This document shows, piece by piece, positions 4,148-28,499 of a DNA stretch of 28,737 nucleotides; the stretch's first letter is position 1, and the number at the start of each line of letters is the position of its first letter. This stretch comes from Gemmatimonadota bacterium (GTDB lineage Bacteria; Gemmatimonadota; Gemmatimonadetes; Palauibacterales; Palauibacteraceae). The DNA is taken from positions 1-28,737 of the forward strand of contig JARFPW010000325.1 of NCBI GenBank assembly GCA_029288095.1, read 5' to 3'. Under the pieces are notes generated by a model. It ran no database searches, was not told the origin of the DNA, and worked only from the letters and a program-made list of their open reading frames with translations. Both the position numbers and the translations under genes were made by a program.

Positions 4148-4278
4148 CCCCGGGTGCTTTGCGGTGCTCCGGTTCGGGTCGCATGTTGTGGTTGCGAGGC
4201 CTCGATTGAGCGCTCGCTGTGAGCACATCCGGCGCGCTGACGCCGTCAACCCTGCATCCTTACCCGGACCACGGTGAC

Positions 4279-5343
4279 ATGAATAGTGAGATCCTCGAAC
4301 TTCTAGGCGATGACGCCACGTCGCTCCTGGAGCATCGGTGCGCGGGCATCGCCGCCGACCGTCTGAGCGCCCCTGGACCCGACTTCGTCGATCGGGTGGT
4401 AGCACAGTCGGATCGTAACAACCGCGTTCTGGGCAACCTGCAATGGATGTTCGGCACCGGCAGGCTCGCGGGCACCGGTCATGTGTCGATTCTGCCGGTG
4501 GACCAGGGTATCGAACACGCTGGAGGGGCGAGCTTCGCCAAGAATCCCGACTACTTCGATCCGGCGAACATCGTCGAGCTGGCGCTCGAGGGCGGATGCA
4601 ATGCCGTCGCCTCTACGTTCGGCGTGCTCGGGTCCGTATCCCGCCGGTTTGCGCACCGGATTCCGTTCATCGTAAAGCTCAACCACAACGAGCTGCTGAC
4701 GTACCCCAACAGCTTCGACCAGATCATGTTCGGCACGGTGCAGCAGGCGTATGACATGGGCGCCGCCGCCGTCGGAGCGACGATCTACTTCGGCTCGGAG
4801 GAAAGCGGCCGGCAGATAATCGAGACGGCAGAAGCCTTCGCCTATGCCCATGAGCTGGGGATGGCGACGATCCTGTGGTGCTACCTGCGGAATTCAGTGT
4901 TCAAGAAGGACCAGGACTACCACGCAAGCGCCGACCTGACGGGGCAGGCGAATCACCTGGGTGTGACGATTCAGGCGGACATCATCAAGCAGAAACTGCC
5001 GGAGAACAACGGCGGCTACGTGGCGATGAATGAAGGCGGTGTGAAGTACGGCCGGTTCGACCAGCGGATATATGACGAGCTGACGACCGATCATCCGATC
5101 GACTTGTGCCGCTACCAGGTAGCGAATTGTTACATGGGAAGGGCCGGGCTGATCAACAGCGGAGGCGCCTCGGGTGACAACGACTACGCCGACGCCGTGC
5201 GAACCGCCGTCATCAACAAACGGGCGGGTGGCACGGGTCTGATATCCGGGCGAAAGGCCTTCCAGCGGCCTCGTGCGGACGGGATTCGGCTGCTCAACCT
5301 GATCCAGGACGTGTACCTCGATTCCGACATCGGTTTGGCATGA
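4279..5343 (+). CDS. fbaB: Class I fructose-bisphosphate aldolase (DhnA/FbaB type)
   Basis: [27 protein letters not shown] (Schiff-base Lys), [10 protein letters not shown]; start placed at MNSEILELL. Confidence 0.93.
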
Positions 5344-5951: not shown

Positions 5952-6949
5952 GCGGTGCACTGCGCGGCCGCCACTTTCTGACGCTGGAGGATTTCACGAG
6001 GGATGAGATTCTCTATCTGCTGGATCTGTCGGCTGAGCTCAAGCGACAGAAGCGGGACGGGTCGGAGACTCGTTCGCTGAGCGGCCACAACATCGCGTTG
6101 ATCTTCGAGAAGACGTCTACGCGAACCCGATGCGCATTTGAGGTAGCGGCGTTCGATCAGGGCGCGCACGTGACGTATCTCGGACCATCCGGTTCACAGA
6201 TCGGCCACAAGGAATCGATGAAGGATACGGCCCGCGTCCTGGGCCGGCTGTACGACGGCATCGAGTATCGCGGTTTCGGCCAGGAGCGGGTGCTGGAGCT
6301 GGCGGATCATGCCGGTGTGCCGGTGTGGAACGGCCTGACCGACGAGTATCACCCCACCCAGGTGCTGGCCGACGTCATGACGATGGTCGAGCACTCGGGC
6401 CGCGGGCCCGACGGACTCTCCCTGTGTTACCTGGGCGACGCCCGAAACAACGTGGGCAACTCGCTTCTCGTCGGAAGCTCGAAACTCGGCATTGACGTGC
6501 GGCTGTGCGGTCCGGAAACGAACTGGCCCGAATCAGCCCTGGTCGATCGATGCCGGGGATATGCCGAGTCGTCCGGAGGGCACATAACGATGACGGAGGA
6601 CGTCGAACAGGGCGTTGCCGGCGTCGACTATCTGTATACGGACGTGTGGGTGTCCATGGGAGAGGATGCGTCCGTATGGGCCGAGCGCATCGAACGGCTT
6701 CTGCCCTACCAGGTGAACCAGCAGGTTCTCGACCTAACAGGAAACTCGAACGTCCGCTTCCTGCATTGCCTCCCGGCATTCCACGATCGGAATACGGCGG
6801 TCGGGGAGCGCATCTTCCAGGAACACGGTCTCGACGGGATGGAGGTCACGGACGACGTGTTCGAATCCGAGCATTCGATCGTCTTCGATCAGGCGGAGAA
6901 CCGACTCCACACGATCAAGGCAGTGATGGTGGCAACGCTTGGGAGTTGA
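5948..6949 (+). CDS. argF: Ornithine carbamoyltransferase
   Basis: [45 protein letters not shown]; GTG start at 5948. Confidence 0.96.
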
Positions 6950-8141
6950 GTCGGACGCGTACCAGCGATCCGGCCCTCACGCCGATCAGTAGAAGCAACG
7001 GAATCAATGCCGAAGGCAGCTGCTGCCGCCAGAACGGGAACCCCGCCAGCAGAACCACGATGATGGCAACCGTCAACGCCATGTAGGTCCCCAGCCATCG
7101 CAAACCCTTGTCCCGTGCGATCGCCCAGGCTGCAAAGAGATGGGTCGGGAGCGCCCAGGCCAGGTTCAGATTGCTGTCCGTCACGCCGTGTAGCGACACG
7201 AACCACAGAAACACGACGACCAGGCCGGCAAGTCCCAGCAGCCCGAAGAACGCGGCGTCGAGAATCCGGCGCCTCCCGCGCCGCGCCTTTACGTCCGCCA
7301 CGGTCAGCAGGGTGCCCAGGCCGAACACGATCCACAGCACGATGGCCGGCCAGGGGGGATCCGGATCCGGCTCCCACGCGAGGTCGCTTCCGCCAGTAAG
7401 CGTGTCGGTACGCACGACCAGGGGCGCTTGTCGACCTCCCCGATCGATGACGCCGGTGGCGACGTATTCCAGCAGCAATTCAGGCAGAAACGTGGCTTCC
7501 CTCGGCGTGGCCTCACGGTCGGCCGGCAGTCCGAGGCCGAGGTCCATTCCGAAATCCGTCCAGGGGACGCCGGGCAGGTACGGATCCAGTAACTCGCGGA
7601 AGCTGCGGCCCGTGTCAGGGGCATCAAAGCTCAATGCGGATCCCACGGACGCCTCGAGGGCGTCCAGCAGCCTGGTGGCGCAGTTGTCGAAGAAGAAATC
7701 GTACTGGTAGTAGCGGTTGTCCGGCCGGGCGTTGATCCTCAGGTAGCTGAACAACGCCTGCTTCTCTCGCCCGGACAGGGCCAGCGTTTGCTCGACCGAC
7801 GCGCGCCCGAGCTCCTCCCAGTAGAACGATACCATGCGGCCCGTGTTCTGCACGCTCAGCCGGTAGTTCAGATCGCCGTACGTGAACCGTCCGATGAAGC
7901 TGGCGATTTCCGCCGGCGAATCGCCGAAGTCGAACGTTCCGTAGTTGTAGCTCTCGTCGATGCCCAGCACCGGATCGGCGACCCTGATCGCGCTGTGACC
8001 GAAAGTCGAGTAAAGGTCATCGCCAGGGAGAATCGAAATCAGCGATACGTGGGCAGATCCGGACAGCGCGGGAATGTCCTGGGCAGTCGCAGTCGAGGCG
8101 CCGAACCCGGCCATCGTCGCTAGCAGAACGGGCGTCAGCAT
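6915..8141 (-). CDS. DUF4105 protein, probable Lnb-like lipoprotein N-acyltransferase homolog
   Basis: Signal peptide; [37 protein letters not shown]; about five C-terminal TM helices. Confidence 0.75.
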
Positions 8142-8450
8142 ATGGCGGATGTGTGCACGCATGGTTCAGAAGCTACTCGGGGGAGCAGCGCCGCTCCAGT
8201 GGTCACGATCCCGCTACTCCCTGCACGCGTTATGACAAAAAAGGTTGCACCGGCTGTGGCTCGGGGCCCACACAGAACAATTCCATCCAACAGCATAACA
8301 TCTTTAAACACAGCTACATATGTACTTTTTCCACCGATAGGCGTCCTGGCGGTTCGCCCGCGCACGATTCTGGCCCCTCATGGGCGCCGACAAAGGTGCG
8401 CACCGGAGATTCTGGCACCGCACCGACCTGGAGAACGCTCGGGGGATACG

Positions 8451-9614
8451 ATGAAGGATCTGGTGAAACACGTCTTGAGTTCGCTCCGCTGGCGCTGGGC
8501 GGACCAGCGGGGAGCCGCGATGATGATCGCCGCGGGCAGCATGGTTGCGCTCGTGTCGGCCATCGCGCTGGCCGTTGACGTCGGAATGCTTACGGTCGCG
8601 CGCACCGAGTCTCAGCAGGTGGCGGATGGTGCGGCCCTGGCCGGCGCCGGGGCGCTGATCCTGTCGCCCGACAACATTGCGTTCGCTACGGCGGAGGCAA
8701 TCAACTTCTCCTCACGCAACGACATCCGTGGATCAACGGCAGTAGTGCTCCCGCAGGACGTCACCGTTGACGTAAACCTGGATCGAGTCACCGTTCGAGT
8801 GGTGCGCACACAAGCCCGTGGCAACCCGGTCGGCACTTTTTTCGCCCGCATTTTCGGCGTGAACGCAGTGAACCTGGTCACGGACGCGACCGCACAGGCC
8901 TCTCCAGCAGGCGGGATCAACTGCCCGCTACCGATCGCGCTTCCGGACCGCTGGTTGGAGGGCCCCGGCAGCGATCCCCGGAGTTTCGAGCCGCAGGACG
9001 GAGACTCGTATGTCCCGTGGATGAATACGAGCACGGATCCCGTTACGTACAACGACAATTACACAGGCTATTCGTCAGCAGACGTGGGCACGCAAATCAC
9101 CCTCAAGTCAAACACGGCCAACGGTGACATGCAGCCTTTCTGGTATTACCCGTGGAGGCCGCCCAATCAGGCGGGTGCCGACGACTATCGCACCAACGTC
9201 CGTAGCTGCGTAGACCCGACGGCAGAGTACTCCGTCAACCAATCCGTGGCGGTCGAGCCCGGAAACATGGCCGGTCCCACCATGCAGGGCTTCAGGGACC
9301 TCATGGACCTGGATCCGCACGCCACATGGAATAGCCAGATGAACTGCATAACGGACGCAAGCGAGGCACTCAGCACCAACGCTTCCTACTGCCGGTCGAG
9401 TCCCAGGGTGCGTCCGATACCGCTGTTCGACCCCAGGTACGGTCCGGAAACGGCAGCGGAGACGTTCAAGTTCACCAACTTCGCCGGCATCTTCGTGGAG
9501 GAAATCAAGGGCAAGGACGTGATTGCGCGTTGGATCGGCTACACAGCGCTTCGTCCCGCGGCACCGGGAACCACTTCCACCACTCCGTTCAAGGTGCTGC
9601 AACTGGTCGAGTAG
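8451..9614 (+). CDS. TadG-like pseudopilin (Tad domain protein)
   Basis: QRG followed by hydrophobic helix and AVDVG; ADGAALAGA; GNMAGPT; start ATG 8451 after GGGGGA. Confidence 0.78.
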   Translation: MKDLVKHVLSSLRWRWADQRGAAMMIAAGSMVALVSAIALAVDVGMLTVARTESQQVADGAALAGAGALILSPDNIAFATAEAINFSSRNDIRGSTAVVLPQDVTVDVNLDRVTVRVVRTQARGNPVGTFFARIFGVNAVNLVTDATAQASPAGGINCPLPIALPDRWLEGPGSDPRSFEPQDGDSYVPWMNTSTDPVTYNDNYTGYSSADVGTQITLKSNTANGDMQPFWYYPWRPPNQAGADDYRTNVRSCVDPTAEYSVNQSVAVEPGNMAGPTMQGFRDLMDLDPHATWNSQMNCITDASEALSTNASYCRSSPRVRPIPLFDPRYGPETAAETFKFTNFAGIFVEEIKGKDVIARWIGYTALRPAAPGTTSTTPFKVLQLVE

Positions 9615-14761: not shown

Positions 14762-15418
14762 TTAATCCGGAAGCGAGCGCAACACGGCCCGCACCGGGCT
14801 GCCGTCGAACCCGACCAGGCGCAGCGGTAGCGCTATGAGTTCGTAGTCTCCCTCGGGCACACCTTCCAGCCTCAAGCCCTCGAGAATGGTCATCCCATGC
14901 CGTGCCACCGCAGCGTGGGCCGGCAGGTCCCTCGACTCCGCAGGATCAATGCTTGGCGTATCGATCCCCACCGTCATCACCCCGGACCCGGCCATCCAGT
15001 CGATGGCAGCCGGCTCGAGCGCGGTGAACTCGGCCGTCCAGACGCTCGGGTCCGGGTAGCTCCCGGTAGCCACGAGAACTCGTGGCGGCAGAGGGCCGCC
15101 GAAATCGTCGAGCACCCGCAGGGCCGCGGCCAGCGATTCAGCCTCGATACGGCGTCCCGCTTCCGTGCCGAGCCGCACGACACGGCAACGTCCGAGCAGC
15201 CGATCGAGCGGCGTCTGATCGATGCCCGCTGCGTCGGCCTCGTAATGCACGGGCGCATCCACGTGGGCCCCGAGGTGCACCGTGGTGCGCAGCGTCGACA
15301 GTGTGACGCTGTCCCCATCCTCCCGACGGGACAGGATGTCTCGCGTGAGGGAAGTGTCGCCCGGAAACACGGCGAGGTTTGCGTCTAACGGCGGAGAAAT
15401 GTCGAACAGATCAGCCAT
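14762..15418 (-). CDS. kynB: Cyclase-family metallohydrolase, kynurenine formamidase
   Basis: HLGAHVDAPVH (HxGxHxDxPxH), VGIDTPS, DGSPVRA; adjacent to kynureninase. Confidence 0.85.
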   Translation of the reverse strand: MADLFDISPPLDANLAVFPGDTSLTRDILSRREDGDSVTLSTLRTTVHLGAHVDAPVHYEADAAGIDQTPLDRLLGRCRVVRLGTEAGRRIEAESLAAALRVLDDFGGPLPPRVLVATGSYPDPSVWTAEFTALEPAAIDWMAGSGVMTVGIDTPSIDPAESRDLPAHAAVARHGMTILEGLRLEGVPEGDYELIALPLRLVGFDGSPVRAVLRSLPD

Positions 15419-16700
15419 CGTGTTCTTCCTGGGCCTGCAACGCTTCCGTCACGAGATGTGCAGCCCGCCAGGCCTCATGGAACGTGTTGAACAGGGGAGC
15501 GGGTGCCAGTCGGACGACATCGGGCTCCCGTACGTCCAGATCGAGGCCTGTTGCCGCGAGTGACATCTGCAGCCCTCGTGCATCACGTGTGACCAACGAC
15601 AGCTGCGCGCCCCGGCTCTCGGCGCTGGTCGGAGTGATGAGGCGGAGGAGTGGCCCGGCGAGGTGCTCGAGGAGCCTCTCGAGATATCCCGTCAGCCGAA
15701 TCGACTTGTCCCGGATAGCGGGCATCCCGGCCTCCGCGCACAGCTCAAGGGCTGGTCCCAGAGGCGCCAGCGCCAGAACCGGCGGGCAACTCACCTGCCA
15801 CCCGGCCGCGTCGCGCCGCGGCACGAAATCATCCTGTCCCCGCCAGCGGAAGCGGGCGACGGGATCGTTCCCCCACCAACCGCCAAGTCGAAACCGTTCC
15901 GCGTCCAGTGCGTGCCGTTGATTCACGAACAGCCCTGCGACGGCACCGGGTCCGCTGTTCAAATACTTGTACGTGCACCAGGCGGCGAAATCGACGCCCC
16001 AATCGCTGAGGGCGAGCGGTACGTTGCCCACGGCATGCGCAAGGTCGAAGCCAACGACACAGCCGGCGGAATGGGCTGCTTCCGTGATACGCTCCATATC
16101 GAGCAATTCGCCGGTCAGGAAGTTCACGCCGCCCAGGAATACGACTGCGATCTCATCGCCCCGGTCGCGCAAAGCGGCTTCTATCCCCTCGATTCCGATG
16201 GGTCCGTGCTCCCCGTCGCCCACTTCGAGGATGCCGTCCTCGGGGTCGATACCATGCCAGGCGAGCTGCGTCTGGACCACATAGCGATCCGAAGGAAAGC
16301 ACGGCCGTTCGATGAGCACCCGGACGCGCCTACCCTCGGGACGATAGAAGCTGGCCATAAGGAGATGCAGGTTCACGGACAGGCCGTTCATCAGGGCCAC
16401 TTCGTGGCGCGTCGCCCCCACGATCGACGCCATCGTTTCCAGGTAGCGGACGTCCAGGTCTACCCAGGTGGCCGGCGAATCGAAGTAGCTGTCGACTCCG
16501 CGTCTCGACCAGCCGTCCAGTTCGTGTGCCACGGCATCGCGCGTGGCCCGGGGAAGCGGGCCCAGCGAGTTGCCGAGGAAGTAGATCCTGGACGCATCAC
16601 TTCCGGGGATCTCGAATCGATCGCGGAACCCGGCGAGCGGATCCGCCCGGTCGAGTTCGCGCGCGAACTCCTCGTCTGTCCGAAACGTCGGGTCGCTCAT
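15411..16700 (-). CDS. kynU: Kynureninase (PLP-dependent)
   Basis: GNSLG, FPSDRY, FDLAHAVGN, WCTYKYLNSGPG, RGAQLS. Confidence 0.93.
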   Translation of the reverse strand: MSDPTFRTDEEFARELDRADPLAGFRDRFEIPGSDASRIYFLGNSLGPLPRATRDAVAHELDGWSRRGVDSYFDSPATWVDLDVRYLETMASIVGATRHEVALMNGLSVNLHLLMASFYRPEGRRVRVLIERPCFPSDRYVVQTQLAWHGIDPEDGILEVGDGEHGPIGIEGIEAALRDRGDEIAVVFLGGVNFLTGELLDMERITEAAHSAGCVVGFDLAHAVGNVPLALSDWGVDFAAWCTYKYLNSGPGAVAGLFVNQRHALDAERFRLGGWWGNDPVARFRWRGQDDFVPRRDAAGWQVSCPPVLALAPLGPALELCAEAGMPAIRDKSIRLTGYLERLLEHLAGPLLRLITPTSAESRGAQLSLVTRDARGLQMSLAATGLDLDVREPDVVRLAPAPLFNTFHEAWRAAHLVTEALQAQEEHDG

Positions 16701-17503
16701 CGGTCCTCGCTGCGACCGAGCACCATGAGGCGCGCGTACTTCATTCGTACCGATTGGGCGTCGAGGCCCGCCAGAAGTAGACCGCGCCAGCCGAGCAGGA
16801 ACCCTCGCTTGAGCACGAAACCCCGCAGGAACCGCAGCGGCGGACGGAACAGAAGATCCAGGACTCCGGCCCTGATGCCACGCTCGAACAATCGCCCTGC
16901 GCTGATGGCGGCGTAGTCGTCGAGCGTCCGCAAATGCTCATCGAACGATCGATACGGATGGTGCAGGAGGTTGCCGCGTAGCTGCACCACGGTGGCATCC
17001 GTCTCCCACCGGTCGTGAGGGTCCTCACCCCCCCAGCTTCCCCGTCGGCGATCAAACAGCCGGAGCTGCCGGTTCGGGTACCAACTCCCGTACCGGATCC
17101 AGGCTCCGAGGTGGTGGGACAGCCGGGGCATCGACCACCCGCCGACATCGGCGAATTCCGACTCCCGAAGGGCGACGATCTCAGATCTCAACTCAGGGGA
17201 CAGCCGCTCATCCGCATCAACCGCAAGAATCCAGTCGTATGCTGCCGCGTCTACGGCGAACTGTTTCTGGGCACGGTGACCCGCCCAGTCCCGTTCTATT
17301 ACGCGGGCTCCCGCCGCGGCTGCGATGTCTCTCGTGGCATCGCTGGAGTGCGAGTCCACAACCAGGATTTCGTCGCAAACGTCGAGCGAGGCGAGGCAGT
17401 CACCGATTCGGTCCGCCTCGTTCATCGCGACGATGCACGCCGAAATCTTGCCGATCCGAGACGGCGCGGATTGCTCCCCAGGCTTCGATGCTGGCTTGTC
17501 CAT
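16697..17503 (-). CDS. Glycosyltransferase family 2 (WaaE/KdtX-like)
   Basis: MNEADRIGDCLASL, VVDSHSSDAT, VDADE, YPNRQLRLF. Confidence 0.88.
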   Translation of the reverse strand: MDKPASKPGEQSAPSRIGKISACIVAMNEADRIGDCLASLDVCDEILVVDSHSSDATRDIAAAAGARVIERDWAGHRAQKQFAVDAAAYDWILAVDADERLSPELRSEIVALRESEFADVGGWSMPRLSHHLGAWIRYGSWYPNRQLRLFDRRRGSWGGEDPHDRWETDATVVQLRGNLLHHPYRSFDEHLRTLDDYAAISAGRLFERGIRAGVLDLLFRPPLRFLRGFVLKRGFLLGWRGLLLAGLDAQSVRMKYARLMVLGRSEDR

Positions 17504-17545
17504 ACGCCCAGTGTCCGGTCGATGGCTCGCGCTTGCAAGGTCGCG

Positions 17546-17575
17546 TTGACACTCCGGCGGAACATCGTCTACCTT
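17546..17575 (+). promoter_or_regulatory. Candidate sigma-70 promoter for cold-shock gene
   Basis: TTGACA (17546-17551), 18-nt spacer, TACCTT (17570-17575). Confidence 0.55.
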
Positions 17576-17655
17576 GACCCACGATGTGCGGAGCGTGCGT
17601 CACGCGCGATCCCGGATACCATGGCTGTAACAGGGCTCAGTGCCAGGAGAGACGA

Positions 17656-17997
17656 ATGCGGACGACCGGCAGGGTCAAGTGGTTCGACAACGCCAAGGGC
17701 TACGGCTTCATCACGATGGAAGACGGGTCCAAGGACTGCTTTGTCCACCACACGGCGATCGATGGCAACGGATTCAAGACACTCGAAGAGGGCGAACTCG
17801 TCGAGTTCGAGGTCACGGAGGGTCAAAAGGGTCCGGCTGCAGCCAACGTGGTTCGGGTTGGCACGGAAGGACCGAGCACCGAAGAGGCGGGCAGCGAAGA
17901 GGTGGTCGCCGAAGAGGTAGTCGCCGAAGAGGTGGTCGCCGAAGAGGTGGTTGCCGAGGAGGTGACAATCGAAGAAGAGAGCGGCGAAGAAGCCTGA
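17656..17997 (+). CDS. Cold-shock protein with acidic C-terminal repeat tail
   Basis: [12 protein letters not shown] (RNP1), CFVHHTAI (RNP2); AGGAGA RBS; EEVVA repeats. Confidence 0.93.
17881..17985 (+). repeat. In-frame 15-bp tandem repeat (7 degenerate units)
   Basis: GAAGAGGTGGTCGCC-type units; four near-identical (17896-17955) encoding EEVVA. Confidence 0.9.
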
Positions 17998-18023
17998 CAG
18001 CGATCCAGTCCGGTTCAGCCGTG

Positions 18024-18054
18024 GCGCCGTCCCTCGCAGGGGCGGCGCTTTTTT
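18024..18054 (+). terminator. Rho-independent terminator after cold-shock gene
   Basis: GCGCCGTCCCT-CGC-AGGGGCGGCGC followed by TTTTTT. Confidence 0.88.
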
Positions 18055-18226
18055 GTCCCCCTCCAACACGTCCGCTCGGCCATGATTCGCAGAATTGCTG
18101 GTCCGCATGTCCCCCGGTGTCTAGTTTTGGGGTCCGAGTCGGAAGACGGCGGTCGGCCAACACCGATCGTACGACGGAGCACACTGGGAGGCCGCACTGC
18201 GCAGCATTGTAACACCTGAGGCCGTC

Positions 18227-19420
18227 GTGGCCTCTGAACGACAGCTCCTGCTGCATAGAGATCTCACGCGCTTCCCAGCCGAACTGTTTCAGTTCGATCC
18301 GAGAATTCGCGAAGGATGGCTGTCCGATCGGTATTTCGTGCGGGCTGCCGCCACGCTGAAGCACGCGAACCGGGATCCGGTGGTCACCCTGCAGGTGTTC
18401 GCGCGCCGCAGCGGCAGGGTCGCGGGCCTCTACGAGTGCGTGCGCATGCTTCAGACTCAGCTTGCTTCCGGGTACGATTACCGGGATCTCGAAGTCTGGA
18501 CGTTGCGAGACGGGGACCAGATCGAGCCCTGGGATGTGGCTTTCCGGATTGTGGGTCCGTACGTCGGATTCGCGCACCTCGAAACCACGATCGATGGTGT
18601 GCTCGCCCGGCGGAGCCGGGTAGCCACCAATGTGTCCAGGGCAGTGGCTGCGGCGGGCGAAGTGCCCGTGATCTACTTCGCTCCCCGGCACGACGACTGG
18701 CGCATCCAGACACCCGACGGGTACGCCGCGCGGGTGGGTGGCGGTCAGAGCGTATCCAGCGACGCGGGTGCGGCGTGGTGGGGGGGCGAGGGCGTCGGCA
18801 CGATGCCGCATGCGCTCATTGCCGCCTATCGGGGCGACGTCGTCGCGGCCACCATCGGATTCACGCACTACGTCCGCGAGCACGAGCCCGACGTTCCGAT
18901 CATCAGCCTGGTGGATTTCGGCAACGACTGCGTGGCAGACTCGCTCGCGGTCGCGCGGGCGATGCGCACCGAGTTCGGTGATGGTGTGCTGCATGGCGTC
19001 CGCCTGGACACGAGCGGGTTGCTGGTCGACAAATCACTTGTTGGCGACGAGACCCTGTGGGGACGCGAGGACCTGCGCGGAGTGAATCCTCACCTGGTGC
19101 GGAAGGTCAGAGCTGCTCTCGACGCCGAGGGTTTCGACTACGTGGGTATCGTCGTGAGCGGCGGATTCACGCCTCGTCGCATCAGGAAATTCGCCGAGCT
19201 CGATCTGCCGATCGTGGCTTACGGCGTCGGCAGCAGCGTGCTCGGGCGCGGTAACGAACTCGACGGCGTCGTTCCGGATTTCGACTTCACGGCAGACATC
19301 GTGGAAGTGGATGGTGAAGCAGTGGCGAAGGTCGGCCGTCACAGGCTCGACAACCCGAACCTGCTGAAGATCGACTGGGACCTGCTGGCCCGCGCCGATG
19401 CGGGGGACTCGTTTGACTGA
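18227..19420 (+). CDS. pncB: Nicotinate phosphoribosyltransferase
   Basis: SDRYF, GTMPHALI, GVRLDTS, IVVSGGF, YGVGS; next to nicotinamidase. Confidence 0.8.
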   Translation: MASERQLLLHRDLTRFPAELFQFDPRIREGWLSDRYFVRAAATLKHANRDPVVTLQVFARRSGRVAGLYECVRMLQTQLASGYDYRDLEVWTLRDGDQIEPWDVAFRIVGPYVGFAHLETTIDGVLARRSRVATNVSRAVAAAGEVPVIYFAPRHDDWRIQTPDGYAARVGGGQSVSSDAGAAWWGGEGVGTMPHALIAAYRGDVVAATIGFTHYVREHEPDVPIISLVDFGNDCVADSLAVARAMRTEFGDGVLHGVRLDTSGLLVDKSLVGDETLWGREDLRGVNPHLVRKVRAALDAEGFDYVGIVVSGGFTPRRIRKFAELDLPIVAYGVGSSVLGRGNELDGVVPDFDFTADIVEVDGEAVAKVGRHRLDNPNLLKIDWDLLARADAGDSFD

Positions 19421-20138
19421 GTTCGGGCGCCTGGTCGGCTGGGTTGTTGACGTGCAGAACGACTTCATGCGCCCGCCTTCCGAGGGCGGGAGACTCTACG
19501 TTTCCGACCTGACTGATCCGACGGACGCCGGTGCCGTCAACGCGCAGCAGACGATAGAGCGTGCCGTCGCCTGGATGCGCGAGCATTGTGACGCCGTTGT
19601 GTTCTCGGCCGATTGGCACGGGCCGGACGACGCGGAGATTGATGCTATCGCTCCCGATCCCGCTGCGGGTACGTACCCGCCGCACTGCATGGGCCGGTCG
19701 GACGATCCTGACACCGCAGAAGGCGCTGAAATCCTCGCGTCCATCAAGCCCGAGAATCCGCTTGTGCTCGACATTCCAGCCGACGAGGACCAGGAAGAGA
19801 CAGCCCGTCTCGCCGTCGCTCATCGTCGCCCTGTGGTCATTCGCAAGAACCGGTTCGATGTGTTTGCCGGTAATGCGGCGACCGAGGCGTTCGTCCGCGC
19901 GCTGGCCGGACAGCTGGGCGGCGATCCACTGTTCGTGGTCGTTGGCGTATCACGCGACGTGTGCGTGACTCGGGCCGTTGACGGCCTGCAGCAGCGCGGG
20001 TATCGGACGCTCGCGCTCAGCGATGCGACTTGGGGGCTCGGCCTTGAAACCGAGGCGGACACCCTCGACAGATGGCGCCTGGGAGGACTGGTAGCGACCC
20101 TCGAAGAGCTGGTCGGAGCGGCTTCGGACGAGACATGA
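19398..20138 (+). CDS. pncA: Nicotinamidase / isochorismatase-family cysteine hydrolase
   Basis: VDVQNDF, ADWH, YPPHC, RKNRFDVF, GVSRDVCV (D-K-C triad plus metal ligands). Confidence 0.78.
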   Translation: MRGTRLTEFGRLVGWVVDVQNDFMRPPSEGGRLYVSDLTDPTDAGAVNAQQTIERAVAWMREHCDAVVFSADWHGPDDAEIDAIAPDPAAGTYPPHCMGRSDDPDTAEGAEILASIKPENPLVLDIPADEDQEETARLAVAHRRPVVIRKNRFDVFAGNAATEAFVRALAGQLGGDPLFVVVGVSRDVCVTRAVDGLQQRGYRTLALSDATWGLGLETEADTLDRWRLGGLVATLEELVGAASDET

Positions 20139-21029: not shown

Positions 21030-21284
21030 ATGACGACGGATCTGCAACGTGTCCCCTGGGTTGGTCCGAGCACGGAGCGGGCTCTACTCGAAGTCGGCGT
21101 CAACCGGATCGCCGACCTGCGGTCGCAGCAGCCCGACGAGTTGTATGATCGATTGTGTGATGTGCGCGGCGAGCGGATAGATCCCTGCGTGAAGTACGTG
21201 TTCCGGTGCGCGGTCTACTGGGCCACGACCCCGGATCCGGATGCTGATCTCCTGAAGTGGTGGAACTGGAAGGACCGAGCCTGA
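21030..21284 (+). CDS. Small helix-hairpin-helix protein (Cdd1/TfoX-C-like)
   Basis: DLQRVPWVGP HhH-like start, DPCVKYVFRCAV, KWWNWKD; GGGGAG RBS. Confidence 0.7.
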   Translation: MTTDLQRVPWVGPSTERALLEVGVNRIADLRSQQPDELYDRLCDVRGERIDPCVKYVFRCAVYWATTPDPDADLLKWWNWKDRA

Positions 21285-21286
21285 AC

Positions 21287-22051
21287 ATGCGTCGCCCCCT
21301 CGTCGTGGCCAACTGGAAGATGAACATCGGCCGCGCCGACGAGGCGCTTGACCTCGTGCGCCGCCTTCGCCCATCGCTCAGCCGGCTCGACAAAACCGAC
21401 ATTGTCGTCTGCCCGCCGTTCACCGTCCTGGTCCCGTTGGCCGAGGTGCTGGCGTCGTCGCCCATAGCGCTCGGCGCCCAGAACGTGCACGCGGCGGCTG
21501 CGGGAGCCCATACGGGAGAAGTGTCGCCGTCGATGCTCACCGGCCTGTGTGAGTACGCAATCGTCGGCCACTCGGAGCGGCGCGCCGCTGGTGAGACGGA
21601 CTCTGACGTGAACGCCAAGGTCCTGGCCTGCGTCGAGCACTCGCTGAGGCCGATCGTCTGCGTGGGCGAGAACCTGGCTGAACAGGAGGCCGGAGACACC
21701 GATGCGATCGTAGCCGGGCAGGTCGCACGTGCGCTGGAGGGGCTGTCCCCGGAGCAGGTGGAGGTCTGTGTCGTCGCTTACGAGCCAATCTGGGCGATCG
21801 GGAGTGGGCGGGCAGCGACTCCGGCGGCTGCCAACCGCACGATGGGCCTGGCCGTCCGCGGGAGCCTCGCCAACCAGTTCGGCGAGAGCTCGGCACAAGC
21901 CGTCCGGGTCCTGTACGGCGGTAGCGTAACATCTTCCGGGATAAGCGGTTTCATGGCCATGCCCGAGATCGACGGAGCGCTCGTCGGTGGGGCGAGTCTA
22001 ACATCCGAGTTCGCCGACCTGGTACGCCTGGCTGACGATTCGACCATGTGA
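21287..22051 (+). CDS. tpiA: Triosephosphate isomerase
   Basis: ANWKMN, VGHSERR, AYEPIWAIG, LYGGSV, GALVGGASL. Confidence 0.96.
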   Translation: MRRPLVVANWKMNIGRADEALDLVRRLRPSLSRLDKTDIVVCPPFTVLVPLAEVLASSPIALGAQNVHAAAAGAHTGEVSPSMLTGLCEYAIVGHSERRAAGETDSDVNAKVLACVEHSLRPIVCVGENLAEQEAGDTDAIVAGQVARALEGLSPEQVEVCVVAYEPIWAIGSGRAATPAAANRTMGLAVRGSLANQFGESSAQAVRVLYGGSVTSSGISGFMAMPEIDGALVGGASLTSEFADLVRLADDSTM

Positions 22052-22109: not shown

Positions 22110-22382
22110 TCAGGGGCCGATCAGCACGTCGTCTATGACTCCGACGATCACGGCCCGGATGGCCCCAGGGTCAAGATCGAGGACCTGGCGCGCCCCATTG
22201 CCCTCGTCAAGCACGAGAACCGTATCGCCGGGACCCGCCTTCGCCTGATCCACGGCGATGTCGTATTGCTCGGTCGTGTCACCCGCGAGGTCCAGACGTT
22301 CGACGAGCAGGAGCCGGCGACCTTCGAGATGACCAATCCTGATGGTTGCCACGACGGATCCGGTAACTCGGCCGACGTACAT
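22110..22382 (-). CDS. BMC vertex protein (BMC-P, EutN/CcmL family)
   Basis: MYVGRVTGSVVAT, AGPGDTVLV, AVIVGVID. Confidence 0.9.
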   Translation of the reverse strand: MYVGRVTGSVVATIRIGHLEGRRLLLVERLDLAGDTTEQYDIAVDQAKAGPGDTVLVLDEGNGARQVLDLDPGAIRAVIVGVIDDVLIGP

Positions 22383-22384
22383 GG

Positions 22385-22657
22385 TCAGGCGTACCGGTGG
22401 ACGTCGTCGATGATGCCGGTGATCGAGAGATCGACAGGCACGAATACGTCCGGTAGCGCCTGAGCGGCCTCCCGGCTTCCCACTACGAACACCAGCGAGC
22501 CCGGTCCCGCCTGAGCGGTGGCATCGGCGGCGACCTCGGGCTGCCCGCGGTCGGTCAACTGCTTGTCGAGGTGCTGGACCACCAGCAGCTTCACGCCTTC
22601 AAGCCCCGGGTACTTCTGGCTGGCGACCACCGTGCCGATCACCCTGGCGAACTTCAT
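22385..22657 (-). CDS. BMC vertex protein (BMC-P, EutN/CcmL family)
   Basis: MKFARVIGTVVAS, QAGPG, SREAA, ITGIID; GGAGG RBS; ATGA overlap with BMC-T. Confidence 0.9.
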   Translation of the reverse strand: MKFARVIGTVVASQKYPGLEGVKLLVVQHLDKQLTDRGQPEVAADATAQAGPGSLVFVVGSREAAQALPDVFVPVDLSITGIIDDVHRYA

Positions 22658-23244
22658 TTCGCCTCCACGGCTCGTCGGCTGAATGGCGTGGCGGCCGAGA
22701 GATTGTCCCACATCTCGGTGTGGAGTTGGGGAATCACCACGCGCCTTACGAGCAGGTCGGGTCGATCAAGCGCGCCCGTTCCACTCTCGACGGCGATCTC
22801 TACGTCCGCTACCACGCCCGAATAGAACACGATCCCCTTGCCGCCGAGCCCGTCGGCCAGCCGGACCTCGACCAGACGCACCTGCGCGCTCTTGAGGCCC
22901 GCGTCCGCTGCCTGAATCGCCGCTGCGGCCGTCATCGTCTCCACGACGCCGATGGCGTCTCGCGGATCGGGGACACGGCTCCCGGTGATCGCCTCGACGA
23001 CGCCCGGATGGACGTTCGGCAGGAAGACATGGTCGAGAACCGCAGAGCCGCCGACCTCACGCCCCGCGGAAAGCGACTCTTCGACGTCAGCCACCGCGCC
23101 GCCGATGAGCACGAGATAGCGCCCTGGCTGCACGGTACCAGCCCGGATCGTGTCGATCGGCGCCCGCTTGACCATGGCGTCAGCCGCCTGGATACCAGAC
23201 GCGATGCTCGAGAAGTCGACGAGGGCGAGGGCGGGTTCAATCAT
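22654..23244 (-). CDS. Tandem-domain BMC shell protein (BMC-T, PduT-like)
   Basis: Two BMC domains: SIASGIQAADAMVK and AAAAIQAADAGLK; LADGLGGKG. Confidence 0.88.
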   Translation of the reverse strand: MIEPALALVDFSSIASGIQAADAMVKRAPIDTIRAGTVQPGRYLVLIGGAVADVEESLSAGREVGGSAVLDHVFLPNVHPGVVEAITGSRVPDPRDAIGVVETMTAAAAIQAADAGLKSAQVRLVEVRLADGLGGKGIVFYSGVVADVEIAVESGTGALDRPDLLVRRVVIPQLHTEMWDNLSAATPFSRRAVEAK

Positions 23245-23277
23245 GTCCGGCGATGCCCGCAGTTGGTCGAAGCATTC

Positions 23278-24744
23278 TCAGACGATCCGGAAGTAGTCCT
23301 TGAGGACACAACGCCGGATGCGGCTGAAGCTGATCGGACTGGTCACGCCCTCTCCGGTCGGGCTCGCGATCGTGAACGAGCAGTGACCCTCGCCGCCATA
23401 CCCGAGACCGTCGAATGACGAACCGTTCTTAACGAAAATGCTGCAGTCCATGACCCGCGCCATGCGGCTCAGGTTGTCCAGGTTCTTGGAGTGCATGACC
23501 GCCGTGTGGCGGAACCCGTGCTCGGCGACCTTCCCTAGATCGATTCCCTCGTTGGCGTCACGTACCCGGACAATGGGATGAATCGGCATCATCTGCTCGG
23601 AGAACACGAGCTGATCATCCTTCTCGACTTCGGCGAGGATGAGGCGGACCTCGTCTCCCGCATCGATACCTATGGCCTTGAGGAGCACGTTGGCATTCTT
23701 GCCGATGAACTCACGGTTCATCACTCCGTGCCGTCCGCGGGGCGGGATTTCGGTAAATATCGAGGCCTTCAGCTGTTCGATCTGTGCCGCGTCGATCTCG
23801 AACGCGCCGTTGGCGCACATCGCCCGCTTGAGGTCATCGGCAATCGACGCGACGGCGAACGTCTCCTTCTCATCGGTGCAGATGATGTTGTTGTCGAACG
23901 AAGCTCCCCGGACGATGTCGCGGCCCGCTTTTTCCAGGTCGGCGGTCTCGTCGACGACCACGGGAGGATTCCCCGGGCCCGCACAGATTGCCCGCTTTCC
24001 GCTCGCCATCGCGGCCTTCACGACGCCGGCGCCACCCGTGACGGTCAGGATGTTGACTCCCTTGTGACCCATGAGAGCCGTAGCGGATTCGATAGTCGGC
24101 TCGGCGATCGCCGTTACGAGATTGGCGGGCCCACCAGCCTCGACGATCGCATCGTTAACGAGTTGAACTGCCATGTTGGAGCTGCTTTTGGCCCCCGGGT
24201 GGGCATTGAACACGATGGCGTTTCCGGCCGAGACCATGCAGATCGTGTTTGAGACCACCGTCGAGATCGGATTCGTACTCGGGATGATGGATCCGATCAA
24301 ACCGTATGGCGCATACTCCACGACGGTCAGCCCCCCGTCGCCCGTCCAGGCCGTCGAGGTCAGGTACTCCGTGCCGGGAGATTTGTCGGCGTTCAGAAGG
24401 ATCTTCTCGATCTTGTCTTCATAGCGGCCCATCCCGCTTTCCTGCCACGCTTCGTATGCCAGCGGCTGGGAATTCTCTCGCATCGCGCGCCGGATATGGG
24501 CAACCATCTTTTCCCTGATCGACAACGGCAGATCCTGGAGCTGACGGAATGCCTTGCGAGCGGCTTCGACCGCGGAGTCCACATCCGGAAACAGATTGTC
24601 CCCGTGGCGTGGTGACGCGGACGGCGCCGGCGGCTTCACGTCGACCACCGGTTCCGGTCTCGGCCCGTGTGCCCCGGCGTCGGGATGATGCAGCTCGGAC
24701 ATCACCCGGTCGATCACCGCCTGGATCTGAGTGTCGTCGATCAT
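23278..24744 (-). CDS. CoA-acylating aldehyde dehydrogenase (EutE/PduP family) with N-terminal encapsulation peptide
   Basis: [28 protein letters not shown] (catalytic Cys), [14 protein letters not shown]. Confidence 0.92.
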
Positions 24745-25043
24745 CCGCTATCTCCCGCCTTGTCGAACGTCACACGCCCGTTGATCTCCACGGTGTCGAC
24801 GATCGCCATGACGACGCCGTCGCACGGACGGTTCTCCGTCACCCTGGTCTGGCGAGCCGAACTTCCCGTGGCGTACAGCACGACCTCACCCAGACCCGCG
24901 CCCACCGCGTCGGCCGCGACGATGCTGGCTCCGGTCTCTTTTCCATCCACGTCGAGCTGCTTCAGGAGAAGAAACTTCAAGCCCTCCAGGGACGGCTCCT
25001 TCTGTGTGGCTACGACCGTCCCGACGACCCTTGCTACGAGCAT
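24741..25043 (-). CDS. BMC vertex protein (BMC-P, EutN/CcmL family)
   Basis: [31 protein letters not shown]; ATGA overlap with AldDH. Confidence 0.93.
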
Positions 25044-25062
25044 CGGTAGCTCCCCGGCCTGT

Positions 25063-25380
25063 CTATTTCTTGGCCGTCTTGGTGACTTCTCGGGTGACCG
25101 GCAGTGTCCCCTCGACGTTGGCATGCGGCCGCGGGATGACATGAATGGCCACGAGCTCTCCAACCTTCTCGGCTCCCCGGGCACCTGCGTCCACAGCGGC
25201 CTTGACTGCGGCGACGTCGCCCCGGACCACCGCCGTCACGTATCCGCCACCTGTCTTCTCATACGCCACCAGCTCAACCCGGGCTGCCTTGACCATCGCG
25301 TCTGCCGCCTCGACCATCGCCGCATAGCTCCGGGTCTCGATCATCCCCAGGGCTTCGATCGCGCCATACTCTTCTGCCAT
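25063..25380 (-). CDS. BMC hexamer shell protein (BMC-H)
   Basis: [37 protein letters not shown]; GGAGG RBS. Confidence 0.96.
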
Positions 25381-25472
25381 TGTGTCCTCCCGTGGACATG
25401 GGTAGCGCGGCTGCACCGCGCCGTTCTGACTTCATCAACCGATTGTGCTCCTCGATCCCTGCAACTACGACG

Positions 25473-26120
25473 TCATGCCTTCCTCTTGGCCTCCATTTCG
25501 CGTCCCTCGATTCCTTCGATCGCCGCCACGGCCGCCCCGTAGCCAGCCATGATGTCGCGCTCTTCACCGCCCAGATACACGCGGCCGAAACTGCCGAACG
25601 AACGCACTTCGAGGATATTCAGATCAGCGGCCTTCTCGGCCTCGTTCGCTGCGAGGGCGGCGTATCCGGCAGGCTCCACCTCGAGCACGTACAGGGTCTG
25701 CCCGGCCAGCAGCATGTGCCCGTAGCGCATCCGGTTGACCAGCTGAACCTGGTGCGCGTCCACGTTGCGGATGATCTGACTCGAGACCACGCGGGGCTTG
25801 ATGCGCTGCGACTCGTCCACTCCGAGTGCCTGCAGGATGGCCGCGCCGGCCGCTCGAACTTCCGCCTGTACCTCGTGATGCACTTCGAGTAAACCGAACA
25901 ATCGTTCAACGACCTGCATGCCGGGGCGTACGCGCGTCGATTTGAGTGCGATATCCGTAATGCGGTTGATCTCGATGCCTGGTGAGATCTCGACCCAAAG
26001 GGACGTGTCCCCGGGCAGCGGCAGGAATCCCCGGGCTACCGTGCCGAGATAGGCCGCGTGCTGCGGCTGGAGGCTGTCCAGAAATGCGTACGTCCGGAGG
26101 TCAACGAGCTTCTGCGTCAT
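25473..26120 (-). CDS. Permuted tandem BMC shell protein (BMC-T dp, CcmP/CsoS1D-like)
   Basis: [43 protein letters not shown]. Confidence 0.9.
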
Positions 26121-26122
26121 GG

Positions 26123-26983
26123 CTAGACTCCCTGAATGATCTTAACGCTCGCACTCGCGCCGATTCGGCTGGCGCCAGCGGCAATCATCTTCTGCGCATC
26201 GGCAAACGTGCGGATTCCGCCCGAAGCCTTCACTCCCAAACCGGGCCCGACTACACGTCGCATCAGCGCGACGTCTTCCGCTGTCGCCCCACCGGGTCCG
26301 AAGCCGGTAGACGTCTTGACGAAGTCTCCGCCGGAGACCTTCACGAGCTGGCAGGCGGCGACCTTCTCTTCGTCAGTGAGGAGGACGGCTTCGATAATGA
26401 CCTTGAGAATCGCGCCGCCCGCGTGGCATGCTCGGGCGACGGACGCGACGTCACGTTGAACGAGTTCGTAGTCCCTCGACTTGAGGGCTCCGACGTTGAT
26501 CACCATGTCCACCTCGGTGGCTCCGTCGCGAATCGCCTTCTGGGCCTCGAACACCTTGGTTTCGGTGGAGGTGGCGCCCAGTGGGAAGCCCACGACCGTG
26601 CAGACACGCACCTGGGACTCCTTCAGCAGGTCGGCACACAACTTCACGTGCGACGGGTTCACGCACACCGATGCGAAATCGCATTTCTTGGCCTCGTAGC
26701 ACAACTGCGCGACCTGGTCCTGCGTAGCATCCGGCTTGAGCAGCGTATGATCGATCATGTGACTCAAGCTGCCGTCCGTCGGAGCAACGCCGAGCGTGCT
26801 CGCGATGCGGTCGGCGCCGGCCCTGACGACAGGTTGCACCCGATCGGTGTAGTTCTGCGCGGAGAGAGCGGCTCCATTCCCGCCCGCGCCGGGTCCGGGG
26901 ATCTTGCCCTGGCCCACGAGGACCAACACCTCGTGGGTGATCTGCTCGATGATGCTCTCGAGTGCCACCTCGTCGTACGTCAT
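26123..26983 (-). CDS. deoC: Deoxyribose-phosphate aldolase (DERA) with ~75-aa N-terminal extension
   Basis: [41 protein letters not shown]; ATGA overlap with rpiB stop. Confidence 0.95.
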
Positions 26984-27762
26984 TTTCGGAGGTACCTCTG
27001 CTCGATGTCCATGATCTTCTTGACGCGTCTCTCGTGTCGGCCGCTCCCCGCCGCTGTCCCCAGCCAGGTCTTCACGATCTGTCGACCCAACTGTGCCCCG
27101 ATCAGCCCGGCGCCGAGGGTCAAGACGTTCGAGTGATTGTGCTCCCGGCTGTTCACCGCGGTGGCCTCGTCGTAGCACATGGCAGCGCGGACGCCCGGCA
27201 CTTTGTTGGCGGCCATGCACGACCCGATTCCTGCGCCATCCACGAGAATCGCTCGCCAGGCCTGTCCCTGGGCCACGAGCTGCGCCGCTGCAAACGCAAA
27301 GTCGGGATAGTCGACGGACTCATTGCCATGAGTGCCGCAGTCAACGACCTCGTATCCCAACTCTCCCACGTACTCCTTGAGCATCTCCTTCAACTCGTAG
27401 CCGCCATGATCCGCTCCGAGGGCCACGACCTCGCTGGCCGGTCGAGTCGTCCGTGGACGCCCTAACGAAACGTCTGAGCTGATCCCCGGGACGACCCGAC
27501 CTGCGTCCCCCTCCGCTCGTACCAGCGAGATACTCCTCTCGGTCGCGGCCTGCTGTGCCAGCGGCGAGACGAGTCCTCCGGCCGGGACGGTGAAAGACCC
27601 GCCGGGGGAAACACCGACCAGGTCGTCTTCAGTAACGAGCCGACTCCGCGAGGCGGCAGCGACGGTTGGTGCCCCAGGCCCCGCGGTACGCAGGACGACG
27701 CGTCGCACCATGTCGCGGATCTTCTGTTCATCCGAGGCGGACACGCTGATACGGTCGTTCAT
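26980..27762 (-). CDS. rpiB: RpiB-family sugar-phosphate isomerase with ~111-aa N-terminal extension
   Basis: [34 protein letters not shown]; TGATG overlap with TetR stop. Confidence 0.88.
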
Positions 27763-28457
27763 CACCAGGCCCGCCATTCGAACTCGTCTTCCGTCTCTCC
27801 AACCGACTCATCGGCACGGGCCGGCTCACCGACGAGCGAATCTCGGGATTCATCTCGCTCGTAACGGCTTCGAGCCACCAGGAGCTCAAAGGTCGATCGC
27901 AGTTGGGCCACGCAGGCGTCGTAGGGGTCAAGCGACTCGGAGGCGCGTGACTGGACGATGCCACCCTCGGCGACGGCGAGAACGTGCTGGGCGAAGGCAC
28001 CGCGCTCCAGCCCTTCGGGCAACCGCGGGCCGGCAGCCTCCAGCCACTCTTGAACCTGCGCCACCCAGATCGCGAAATACCTCTCGATCAGCACTCGAAC
28101 CCTCGGAATGCCGCTGCCCACTTCGAGGGCCAGGCTTCCCACTGGACTGCCCAGCTTGCACCCGGAAACGAGCAACGTCCTGCGGTAGATGCCGAGCAAT
28201 GAGAACACATGTTCGAGGGGATCTTCCGTAACACTCTCCGCGGCAGCTCGCTCGAGGAACTGGGGACGCAGCATGTCCAGGTGGCGCTGCATGACGGCGA
28301 CCAACAGGTCTTCCTTGCTCGAGAAGAAGTGATACAGGCTTCCGCTCTTAACGCCGGCGACGCGGAGAATCCCGGCGACCCCCGTCGCATGGTAGCCCTG
28401 CTCGGCGAACAACCGTGCAGCGGCCTCCAGTATGCGGTCCTTCGTGTCGGTTGGCAT
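27762..28457 (-). CDS. TetR-family transcriptional regulator
   Basis: KDRILEAAARLFAEQGYHATGV...GSLYHFFSSKEDL; GCKLGS; start at MPTDTK. Confidence 0.92.
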   Translation of the reverse strand: MPTDTKDRILEAAARLFAEQGYHATGVAGILRVAGVKSGSLYHFFSSKEDLLVAVMQRHLDMLRPQFLERAAAESVTEDPLEHVFSLLGIYRRTLLVSGCKLGSPVGSLALEVGSGIPRVRVLIERYFAIWVAQVQEWLEAAGPRLPEGLERGAFAQHVLAVAEGGIVQSRASESLDPYDACVAQLRSTFELLVARSRYERDESRDSLVGEPARADESVGETEDEFEWRAW

Positions 28458-28460
28458 TGT

Positions 28461-28480
28461 TTGATAAACCAATCAATCAA
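28461..28480. promoter_or_regulatory. Candidate TetR operator
   Basis: AT-rich TTGAT-N10-ATCAA inverted repeat overlapping the putative -10 and start site. Confidence 0.5.
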
Positions 28481-28499
28481 GTGCCAGAGCCGCTGTCAA
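28471..28499 (-). promoter_or_regulatory. Candidate sigma-70 promoter for tetR-BMC operon
   Basis: TTGACA (28499-28494), 17-nt spacer, TGn-extended TTGATT (28476-28471). Confidence 0.55.

Follow-up and report, generated by a model that had tools for sequence, protein, structure and literature searches.

A compact microcompartment locus of probable SPU3 type in a Gemmatimonadota metagenome-assembled genome

A stretch of 28,737 nucleotides from a Gemmatimonadota bacterium (assembly GCA_029288095.1, contig JARFPW010000325.1), called here the window, carries on its minus strand at positions 22110-28457 ten closely packed reading frames. They encode bacterial microcompartment (BMC) shell proteins, a TetR-family regulator, an aldolase for deoxyribose 5-phosphate (DERA), a RpiB-like protein (RPI) and an acylating aldehyde dehydrogenase (AldDH). 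The question raised by this locus is whether it represents a new sort of sugar-phosphate-utilising (SPU) compartment or one already catalogued, and how such a compartment would work and be supplied. In this study, the locus was assigned with good confidence, on the basis of its gene content and order, to the SPU3 type of SPU metabolosomes, here in a metagenome-assembled genome (MAG). It is best read as an intact and well-conserved example of that type, and not as a new subtype or a new kind of system.

All ten reading frames are intact according to the listing of open reading frames (ORFs). The locus extends from the ATG of tetR (28457) to the stop codon of the last BMC-P gene (22110), in the order TetR-RPI-DERA-BMC-T(dp)-BMC-H-BMC-P-AldDH-BMC-T(s)-BMC-P-BMC-P. 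Stop and start codons overlap as ATGA at RPI/DERA, P1/AldDH and BMC-T(s)/P2 (BMC-P genes numbered in operon order) and as TGATG at tetR/RPI, and the remaining intergenic gaps measure 2 to 92 nt. The window has about 64% GC throughout; the BMC locus shows no compositional break, its GC content being that of the flanks. Gene identities were assigned with Pfam and NCBIfam by matches above the curated cut-offs (Table 1). The shell set comprises one BMC-H, two BMC-T of different classes (the single-layer T(s) and the double-stacking T(dp)) and three BMC-P. The source assembly is 2.3 Mb in size and 85% complete, a scope that applies to all genome-wide absences given below; no further BMC-domain or EutN-domain genes were found in it beyond the locus. 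A preliminary description of the window, made before these family searches, had already given this gene inventory with its coordinates and shell count, and these are correct. Its view of a complete SPU-class locus with DERA, a RpiB variant and an acylating AldDH is likewise borne out by the family matches, and tetR is indeed the first gene of the operon, as it had stated.

The catalogue of Sutter et al. 2021 (PMC8217296, Supplementary Data 2) recognises seven SPU subtypes, which are split according to their enzymes, the order of their genes and the make-up of their shell proteins. Membership in the SPU class as a whole is indicated by three features of the locus. The shell genes are clustered with a PF01791 DERA and AldDH within 6.3 kb on one strand; three EutN_CcmL genes are present, with P2 and P3 adjacent and P1 apart; and the DERA has a BMC-specific N-terminal extension together with the catalytic Asp/Lys/Lys. 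Among the subtypes, SPU3 is described in the catalogue text as having AldDH, PF01791 and PF02502 only, with PF02502 before PF01791, and N-terminal encapsulation peptides on AldDH and PF01791. Its shell includes one standard BMC-H, a BMC-P triplet, a CcmP-like BMC-T(dp) and a BMC-T(s) without PduS partner and without pore cysteine, and Gemmatimonadetes are named among the hosts (PMC8217296). In the features compared, the locus displays the same set. Its enzymes are AldDH, PF01791 and PF02502 only, PF02502 lying upstream of PF01791. Encapsulation peptides are found at the N-termini of AldDH and DERA, and the C-terminus of AldDH is free of the helix known from SPU6. The BMC-T(dp) is CcmP-like (NF053796, 4HT5), the BMC-T(s) has no pore cysteine and no PduS in the genome, and one standard BMC-H occurs with exactly three BMC-P. 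None of the defining features of SPU3 that were compared differs from the locus. Two details lie beside that set: RPI and DERA are fused in 12-20 of the catalogued loci and are separate genes here, and the TetR leader and the convergent triosephosphate isomerase (TPI) gene, which the catalogue text does not discuss, are lineage-level accessories in this locus.

The extensions of the cargo enzymes were examined by aligning the three enzymes of the window with counterparts from up to 18 related loci. DERA, AldDH and RPI each start with an amphipathic helix that is conserved, after which comes a Pro/Gly-rich linker of poor conservation, and a hydrophobic-moment calculation gives soft support for encapsulation helices. 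Residues 72-285 of DERA align to a solved DERA (PDB 6D33, E = 8e-84), and the catalytic residues D159, K194 and K223 are invariant in 25 aligned sequences including that of the window. Residues 1-71, an N-terminal extension of about 70 residues, are unmatched in solved DERAs; matches to Bacillus-type DERAs without nearby shell genes begin at residues 59-72 and leave the extension unmatched. The helix at its N-terminus is kept in both SPU3-type and SPU6-type loci, and the second conserved segment after the helix was described by Dwyer et al. (2024; PMC11585597, cited throughout from its available text). The best PDB matches of AldDH are the BMC-associated CoA-acylating enzymes 4C3S (6e-122) and PduP 5JFL (7e-119), with catalytic Cys289 conserved. 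Its N-terminal helix and Pro-rich linker are conserved in all loci with the same gene order, while AldDH in SPU6-order loci has no N-terminal helix and a C-terminal helix instead. Another gene of the DeoC/LacD fold is located 17 kb from the locus (4219-5343, plus strand; NF006707, 633 bits). It was considered as an extra cargo aldolase and rejected, being a full-length class I fructose-bisphosphate aldolase without extension and probably a housekeeping enzyme.

Among the shell proteins, BMC-T(dp) finds its best PDB match in CcmP of Synechococcus (4HT5, 5e-91) and its second in HO-5816 (9e-74). This protein can look like a plain BMC-T because the Pfam BMC family detects it weakly. A database search with it gave over 7,900 relatives at E of 1e-60 or better; of the best 120, those that bear a name are mostly labelled Gemmatimonadota. 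BMC-H, the product of the only single-domain BMC gene in the genome, possesses the standard KAA.../PRPH edge motifs and is nearest among solved proteins to Haliangium HO-5815 (4e-39). All three EutN-domain genes of the genome lie in the operon. In BMC-T(s), the pore Cys of PduT (3N79, 3PAC) aligns to Gln and the protein has zero cysteines; without a cysteine it cannot hold an Fe-S cluster. The genome gave no RnfC_N/PduS-like match.

The RPI has three parts: an amphipathic helix at its N-terminus, then a conserved mini-domain (residues 47-85) and finally a RpiB domain. Its loop VDGAGIGS, as against ICGTGLG in solved RpiB 3HE8, places Asp at the position of the catalytic Cys, and the catalytic-base Cys and CGTGxG loop of a functional RpiB of the E. 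coli type are missing. The Asp is invariant in 19 and in 25 aligned sequences, from SPU3-type and SPU6-type loci alike. Because Asp occupies the catalytic Cys position, we file the protein as RpiB-like and not as a proven isomerase. In the SPU6 RPI, too, the N-terminus bears a helix and the Cys is replaced by Asp; according to Dwyer et al., who described this change for it, that protein bound DERA about 1:1 with little or no isomerase activity on ribose 5-phosphate (R5P) (PMC11585597). A complex prediction for DERA and RPI of the window with ortholog alignments gave a score of 0.07 against a mark of 0.32, which neither supports nor counters binding.

The gene identities, conserved catalytic residues, extensions and synteny seen here, read together with family membership and the literature, suggest how such a compartment may work with respect to substrate, encapsulation, RPI scaffolding, cofactor route and TetR action. 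The shell would combine three BMC-P and one BMC-H with two kinds of BMC-T, a PduT-like BMC-T(s) in a structural role and a CcmP-like BMC-T(dp) that is gated. Inside it, the three cargo proteins would be held through their N-terminal amphipathic helices, which are followed by disordered linkers. Deoxyribose 5-phosphate (dR5P) would enter the shell and be cleaved by DERA into glyceraldehyde 3-phosphate (GAP) and acetaldehyde, and AldDH would trap the acetaldehyde as acetyl-CoA with NAD+ and CoA. This route had been put forward in the preliminary description, and it is the published SPU model. The RpiB-like protein would most likely serve as a scaffold or adaptor and not as a R5P isomerase. A PduL-type phosphotransacylase (PTAC, PF06130) was found neither in the operon nor in the assembled genome, and no alcohol dehydrogenase is encoded in the operon; passage across the shell would therefore be needed for acetyl-CoA, NADH and fresh cofactors, plausibly by way of the BMC-T(dp) pore. 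Dwyer et al. proposed cofactor passage through the gated BMC-T(dp) pore and noted that PTAC-less subtypes typically have a T(dp) (PMC11585597). GAP would leave the shell for the adjacent extra TPI and central metabolism. The genome has two TPI copies, the housekeeping one lying in a gap-pgk-tpi row on contig C196 (G000:C196:4393-5127). The copy adjacent to the operon, whose counterparts are convergent to the last BMC-P in eight related loci, has no encapsulation peptide and is for that reason probably an accessory cytosolic enzyme for exported GAP.

Several points weigh against this picture. The SPU3 assignment was made by the text description of the catalogue, and the colour clades of the shell proteins (for SPU3, BMC-P green, grey and orange, and BMC-T(dp) Tdp_lightLightGreen or slimeGreen; PMC8217296) lay outside the comparison. 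Neither by accession nor by locus tag could the locus be tied to any SPU3 entry of the catalogue; E2O48 and E2O75 do not occur in its supplement trees, and the SPU3 representatives in the T(dp) tree of the catalogue come from other phyla only. On the metabolic side, neither this genome nor any of 25 relatives of the same order, 17 of which are at least 90% complete, yielded DeoB (TIGR01696), so the usual route from nucleoside through deoxyribose 1-phosphate to dR5P is not evident; several of these 26 genomes carry the SPU locus. At 85% completeness, the absences from this genome are provisional.

The apparent lack of DeoB bears on a different reading, in which the compartment is real but its substrate is not DNA-derived dR5P but another sugar phosphate or aldehyde donor, and the Asp-type RPI is an active isomerase for an unusual sugar phosphate. 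No member of the PF05014 deoxynucleoside monophosphate N-hydrolase family was found in the genome either. The Asp of RPI is strictly conserved along with the other substrate-binding residues of RpiB, which fits retained ligand binding or catalysis, and Dwyer et al. leave room for other RPI substrates (PMC11585597). We nevertheless consider this reading unlikely. The DERA is a deoC equivalog that scores more than twice the cut-off and retains all three catalytic residues, and its SPU6 counterpart is active on dR5P (PMC11585597). Moreover, the genome has genes for a pyrimidine nucleoside phosphorylase, for PNP-family proteins and for a full-length PfkB sugar kinase, and because of these nucleoside phosphorylases and the PfkB kinase, dR5P could be formed via a deoxyribokinase or a PGM-family mutase.

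Returning to the SPU3 reading, the mini-domain of RPI offers a hint to the place of this protein in the compartment. In the AlphaFold2 (AF2) model, a helix at residues 9-27 and the mini-domain (pLDDT 91-96) are separated from each other and from the RpiB domain by disordered linkers on both sides of the mini-domain, which folds as a compact beta-alpha-beta-beta-alpha-beta unit. This unit of 40 residues is common to all SPU3-type RPIs, with the consensus LVTExDv..vP.G..l.vP.gaLVTPLARQ.A.ER.i.L. By hhalign, its profile aligns to residues 2-45 of E. coli EutQ (P = 8e-5) and to residues 4-45 of EutT (P = 1.4e-5), as compared with P of 0.015 or more for all of eight control proteins. The likeness to EutQ is weak, at 20% identity over 41 columns. 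A weaker alignment (P = 7e-4) was obtained to the N-terminus of a separate 118-aa protein of SPU6 loci, which appears to be the EutQ-like small protein of the catalogue. A Foldseek search of AlphaFold DB clusters found the same small fold at protein ends, with TM by query of 0.67-0.81 and E of 3e-4 to 0.23, in carriers named ethanolamine utilization protein, phosphate propanoyltransferase and flavoprotein; against the PDB nothing significant was found (best E 0.46). The N-terminal region of the RPI in the window goes unrecognised by Pfam, as do those of E. coli EutQ and EutT, and 27 of 41 orthologous mini-domains give weak sub-threshold matches to PF15953 PDU_like (best E 9e-5). In Salmonella EutQ, shell binding maps to the H1/H2 region (residues 9-41), and binding of cargo encapsulation peptides to the region after it (Yang et al., bioRxiv 10.1101/2024.05.17.594633); EutQ is not mentioned in the available text of the 2024 SPU paper (PMC11585597). 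The EutQ N-terminus is fused to a cupin, whereas the mini-domain is inserted between the encapsulation helix and the RpiB domain.

Taken together with the altered active site, this architecture raises the possibility, which we advance tentatively and rate below even chances, that the SPU3 RPI is a dedicated shell-to-cargo adaptor, a counterpart of EutQ, CcmN or CsoS2. Its N-terminal amphipathic helix would then join the cargo core, the mini-domain, related to the shell-binding N-terminus of EutQ/EutT, would dock on the shell, and the catalytically altered RpiB domain would hold DERA. In SPU6, the same job might be split between RPI and the separate small EutQ-like protein. The mini-domain was also seen in other arrangements. 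A RPI gene region of an Anaerolineales MAG (L030:1871-2464) encodes three tandem copies, and in two Bacillota loci of a different SPU-like layout a similar mini-domain lies on a non-RPI gene near shell genes (L065:2915-3034 and L066:2982-3107). In Vicinamibacteraceae and Luteitalea (L074 and L077, about 7270-8840), a RPI-like gene with mini-domain adjoins a DERA with BMC-type N-terminal extension; no homologues of the window shell proteins were found within 8 kb on either side, and the locus may be fragmented.

Regulation of the operon can be approached from the region upstream of tetR. An imperfect palindrome, TTGATTGAT-N6-ATCAAACAA, abuts the tetR ATG and is preceded by a perfect TTGACA (Table 1). 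It was found by script, as an exact-seed inverted-repeat finder missed the imperfect repeat. About 12 Gemmatimonadota loci show a variant of the form TTGATyG...CrATCAA directly upstream of tetR, and five of these also have TTGACA 17-18 nt upstream; a TetR homologue is immediately upstream of RPI in 16 loci. From this conservation we infer that the palindrome is an operator. An autoregulated, TetR-controlled operon thus has good comparative support, in which the TetR-family repressor probably binds the palindrome over its own promoter and releases it on a ligand. The ATG at 28457 is taken as the tetR start, the TTG at 28472 being less likely. No NCBIfam equivalog reached its cut-off for the TetR protein.

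Comparison with other catalogued types further separates the locus from them. SPU2 has a fourth BMC-P and usually a Cys-bearing BMC-T(s), unlike the locus. SPU6, found in Chloroflexi, is in the available text the sole SPU type for which biochemical work is given (Dwyer, Sutter and Kerfeld 2024, PMC11585597). It shares with the locus the lack of PTAC and the presence of BMC-T(dp) and a BMC-P triplet, and both the N-terminal extension of 70 residues and the catalytic triad recur in its DERA, at about 60% identity. However, the SPU6 gene order is RPI-DERA-P-AldDH-H-Tdp-small ORF-P-P, and its AldDH is only about 31% identical to that of the window, with the encapsulation peptide at the C-terminus instead of the N-terminus. 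The T(dp) of SPU6 is about 50% identical and belongs to the blue clade in the catalogue, and no BMC-T(s) was found in SPU6 loci whereas the locus has one. The EutQ-like sequence is a separate 118-aa protein in SPU6, while in the locus the mini-domain sits inside RPI and no separate small ORF exists. The regulator of the SPU6 model locus is GntR-like (PMC11585597), as opposed to TetR here. With an N-terminal AldDH peptide and no separate EutQ-like protein, the locus does not belong to SPU6. Two types common in Gemmatimonadetes do not fit either: FRAG8 has fragmented loci and a C-terminal AldDH peptide, against a compact locus with N-terminal peptide, and MUF2 combines AldDH with PTAC and a PF00596 class II aldolase, against a locus without PTAC. 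The Haliangium ochraceum (HO) shell (PDB 5V74 etc.) provides the closest solved relatives of BMC-H, and HO T(s) 5DIH matches too. HO loci and the locus both have a BMC-P triplet (PMC8217296), but the main HO locus is without DERA and RPI and has two T(dp) where the locus has one.

To place the locus among its relatives, DERA was scanned against one genome per GTDB species, which gave 565 relatives, and eleven window proteins (ten from the operon and TPI) were mapped onto the best 80 of the 565 loci. The order TetR-RPI-DERA-Tdp-H-P-AldDH-Ts-P-P was found in at least ten Gemmatimonadota MAGs, with 70-97% identity of shell proteins and enzymes, and the convergent TPI in six of these ten loci. The nearest loci are from Gemmatimonadota MAGs, in keeping with the Gemmatimonadota-like host suggested from the letters of the window, and the same-family genome G009 (contig C17) coincides in coordinates with L007, a locus of a Gemmatimonadota MAG. 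Without TetR, the core order is also seen in Anaerolineae, Holophagae, Thermoanaerobaculales and Eisenbacteria, and a second Anaerolineae group has the SPU6 order with AldDH 31% identical.

This distribution bears on the proposal of the preliminary description that the locus stands for a distinct SPU subtype not described before, with a compact, TetR-led layout and restricted to Gemmatimonadota. The TetR leader and convergent TPI are conserved mainly in Gemmatimonadota loci, the model SPU6 locus uses another kind of regulator, and the published subtype definitions leave out regulators, all of which would leave space for such a subtype. Yet the enzyme set, gene order, placement of encapsulation peptides and shell set all equal the SPU3 description, where a Gemmatimonadetes host is named, and the TetR-less core order in the four groups above comes with 60-90% protein identity. 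Since the catalogue sets subtypes by enzymes, gene order and shell proteins and not by regulator (PMC8217296), a separate subtype is very improbable. The proposal had named a match in content and order to a described SPU subtype as the check on its novelty; that match is found in SPU3, and the order recurs in at least ten other Gemmatimonadota MAGs, so the claim of a distinct subtype does not stand.

The SPU DERA was detected in one of seven same-genus genomes, three of eight same-family genomes and none of ten neighbouring-family genomes. This patchy presence, together with high cross-phylum identities, fits horizontal spread, which was already noted in the catalogue (PMC8217296). An Akkermansiaceae-labelled contig (L010) carries the TetR-led Gemmatimonadota-type order, the palindrome and TPI at 53-87% identity, which suggests a mis-binned contig or a recent transfer. 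That the locus is a decaying or silent horizontal acquisition without current function, as the patchiness and the cross-phylum identities of 75-93% might be taken to suggest, is hardly credible in view of ten intact reading frames with coupled starts, conserved catalytic residues and encapsulation helices, and a GC content the same as that of the flanks.

SPU is among the most widespread metabolosome classes. It had been called little studied in vivo, which calls for a qualification: DERA and RPI of SPU type were both produced and assayed in 2024 (PMC11585597), although the available SPU literature reports no in vivo work in a native host. As a single compact operon in which a repressor and a putative operator can be recognised, this SPU3 locus is a convenient candidate for heterologous reconstruction, and an inducing ligand, if found via this locus, would reveal the true substrate. 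Modest additions made here to the picture of such loci are the RPI mini-domain resembling the EutQ N-terminus, the conserved palindrome upstream of tetR, and a genome in which DeoB and PduL were not found. Two leads, a RPI perhaps built as an adaptor and a genome that seems to lack DeoB and PduL, touch on dR5P supply and cofactor recycling in PTAC-less SPU compartments.

Table 1. Features of the microcompartment locus and its borders, in window coordinates.
Feature	Coordinates	Strand	Support and remarks
Candidate promoter/operator region	28457..28499	-	TTGACA 28499-28494; imperfect palindrome 28480-28457
TetR-family regulator, 231 aa from ATG	27762..28457	-	TetR_N 1e-17; TetR_C_13_2 7e-9
RpiB-like protein (RPI)	26980..27777	-	LacAB_rpiB 2e-50, residues 118-255; alternative start ATG 27762
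RPI mini-domain, residues 47-85	27523..27639	-	conserved in orthologues; AF2 model
Deoxyribose-5-phosphate aldolase (DERA)	26123..26983	-	TIGR00126 deoC, 278 bits vs cut-off 117
BMC-T(dp), CcmP-like double-stacking gated trimer	25473..26120	-	NF053796, 366 bits vs cut-off 340
BMC-H, hexamer	25063..25380	-	PF00936 2e-30
BMC-P number 1, pentamer, apart from the other two	24741..25043	-	EutN_CcmL 3e-29
Acylating aldehyde dehydrogenase (AldDH)	23278..24744	-	NF011927, 624 bits
BMC-T(s), PduT-like tandem-domain trimer	22654..23244	-	PF00936 twice, 3e-35
BMC-P number 2, adjoins number 3	22385..22657	-	EutN_CcmL 1e-24
BMC-P number 3, final operon gene	22110..22382	-	EutN_CcmL 7e-21
Second triosephosphate isomerase (TPI)	21257..22051	+	PF00121 3e-77; convergent with operon

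Other parts of the window hold genes apart from this system. A gene cluster related to NAD metabolism occupies 14762-20138, with a putative cyclase (possibly a kynurenine formamidase) and a kynureninase on the minus strand, and a nicotinate phosphoribosyltransferase and an isochorismatase-family protein (possibly a nicotinamidase) on the plus strand. The minus-strand gene at 6915-8162 encodes a protein that has an Lnb N-terminal domain and transmembrane domains.

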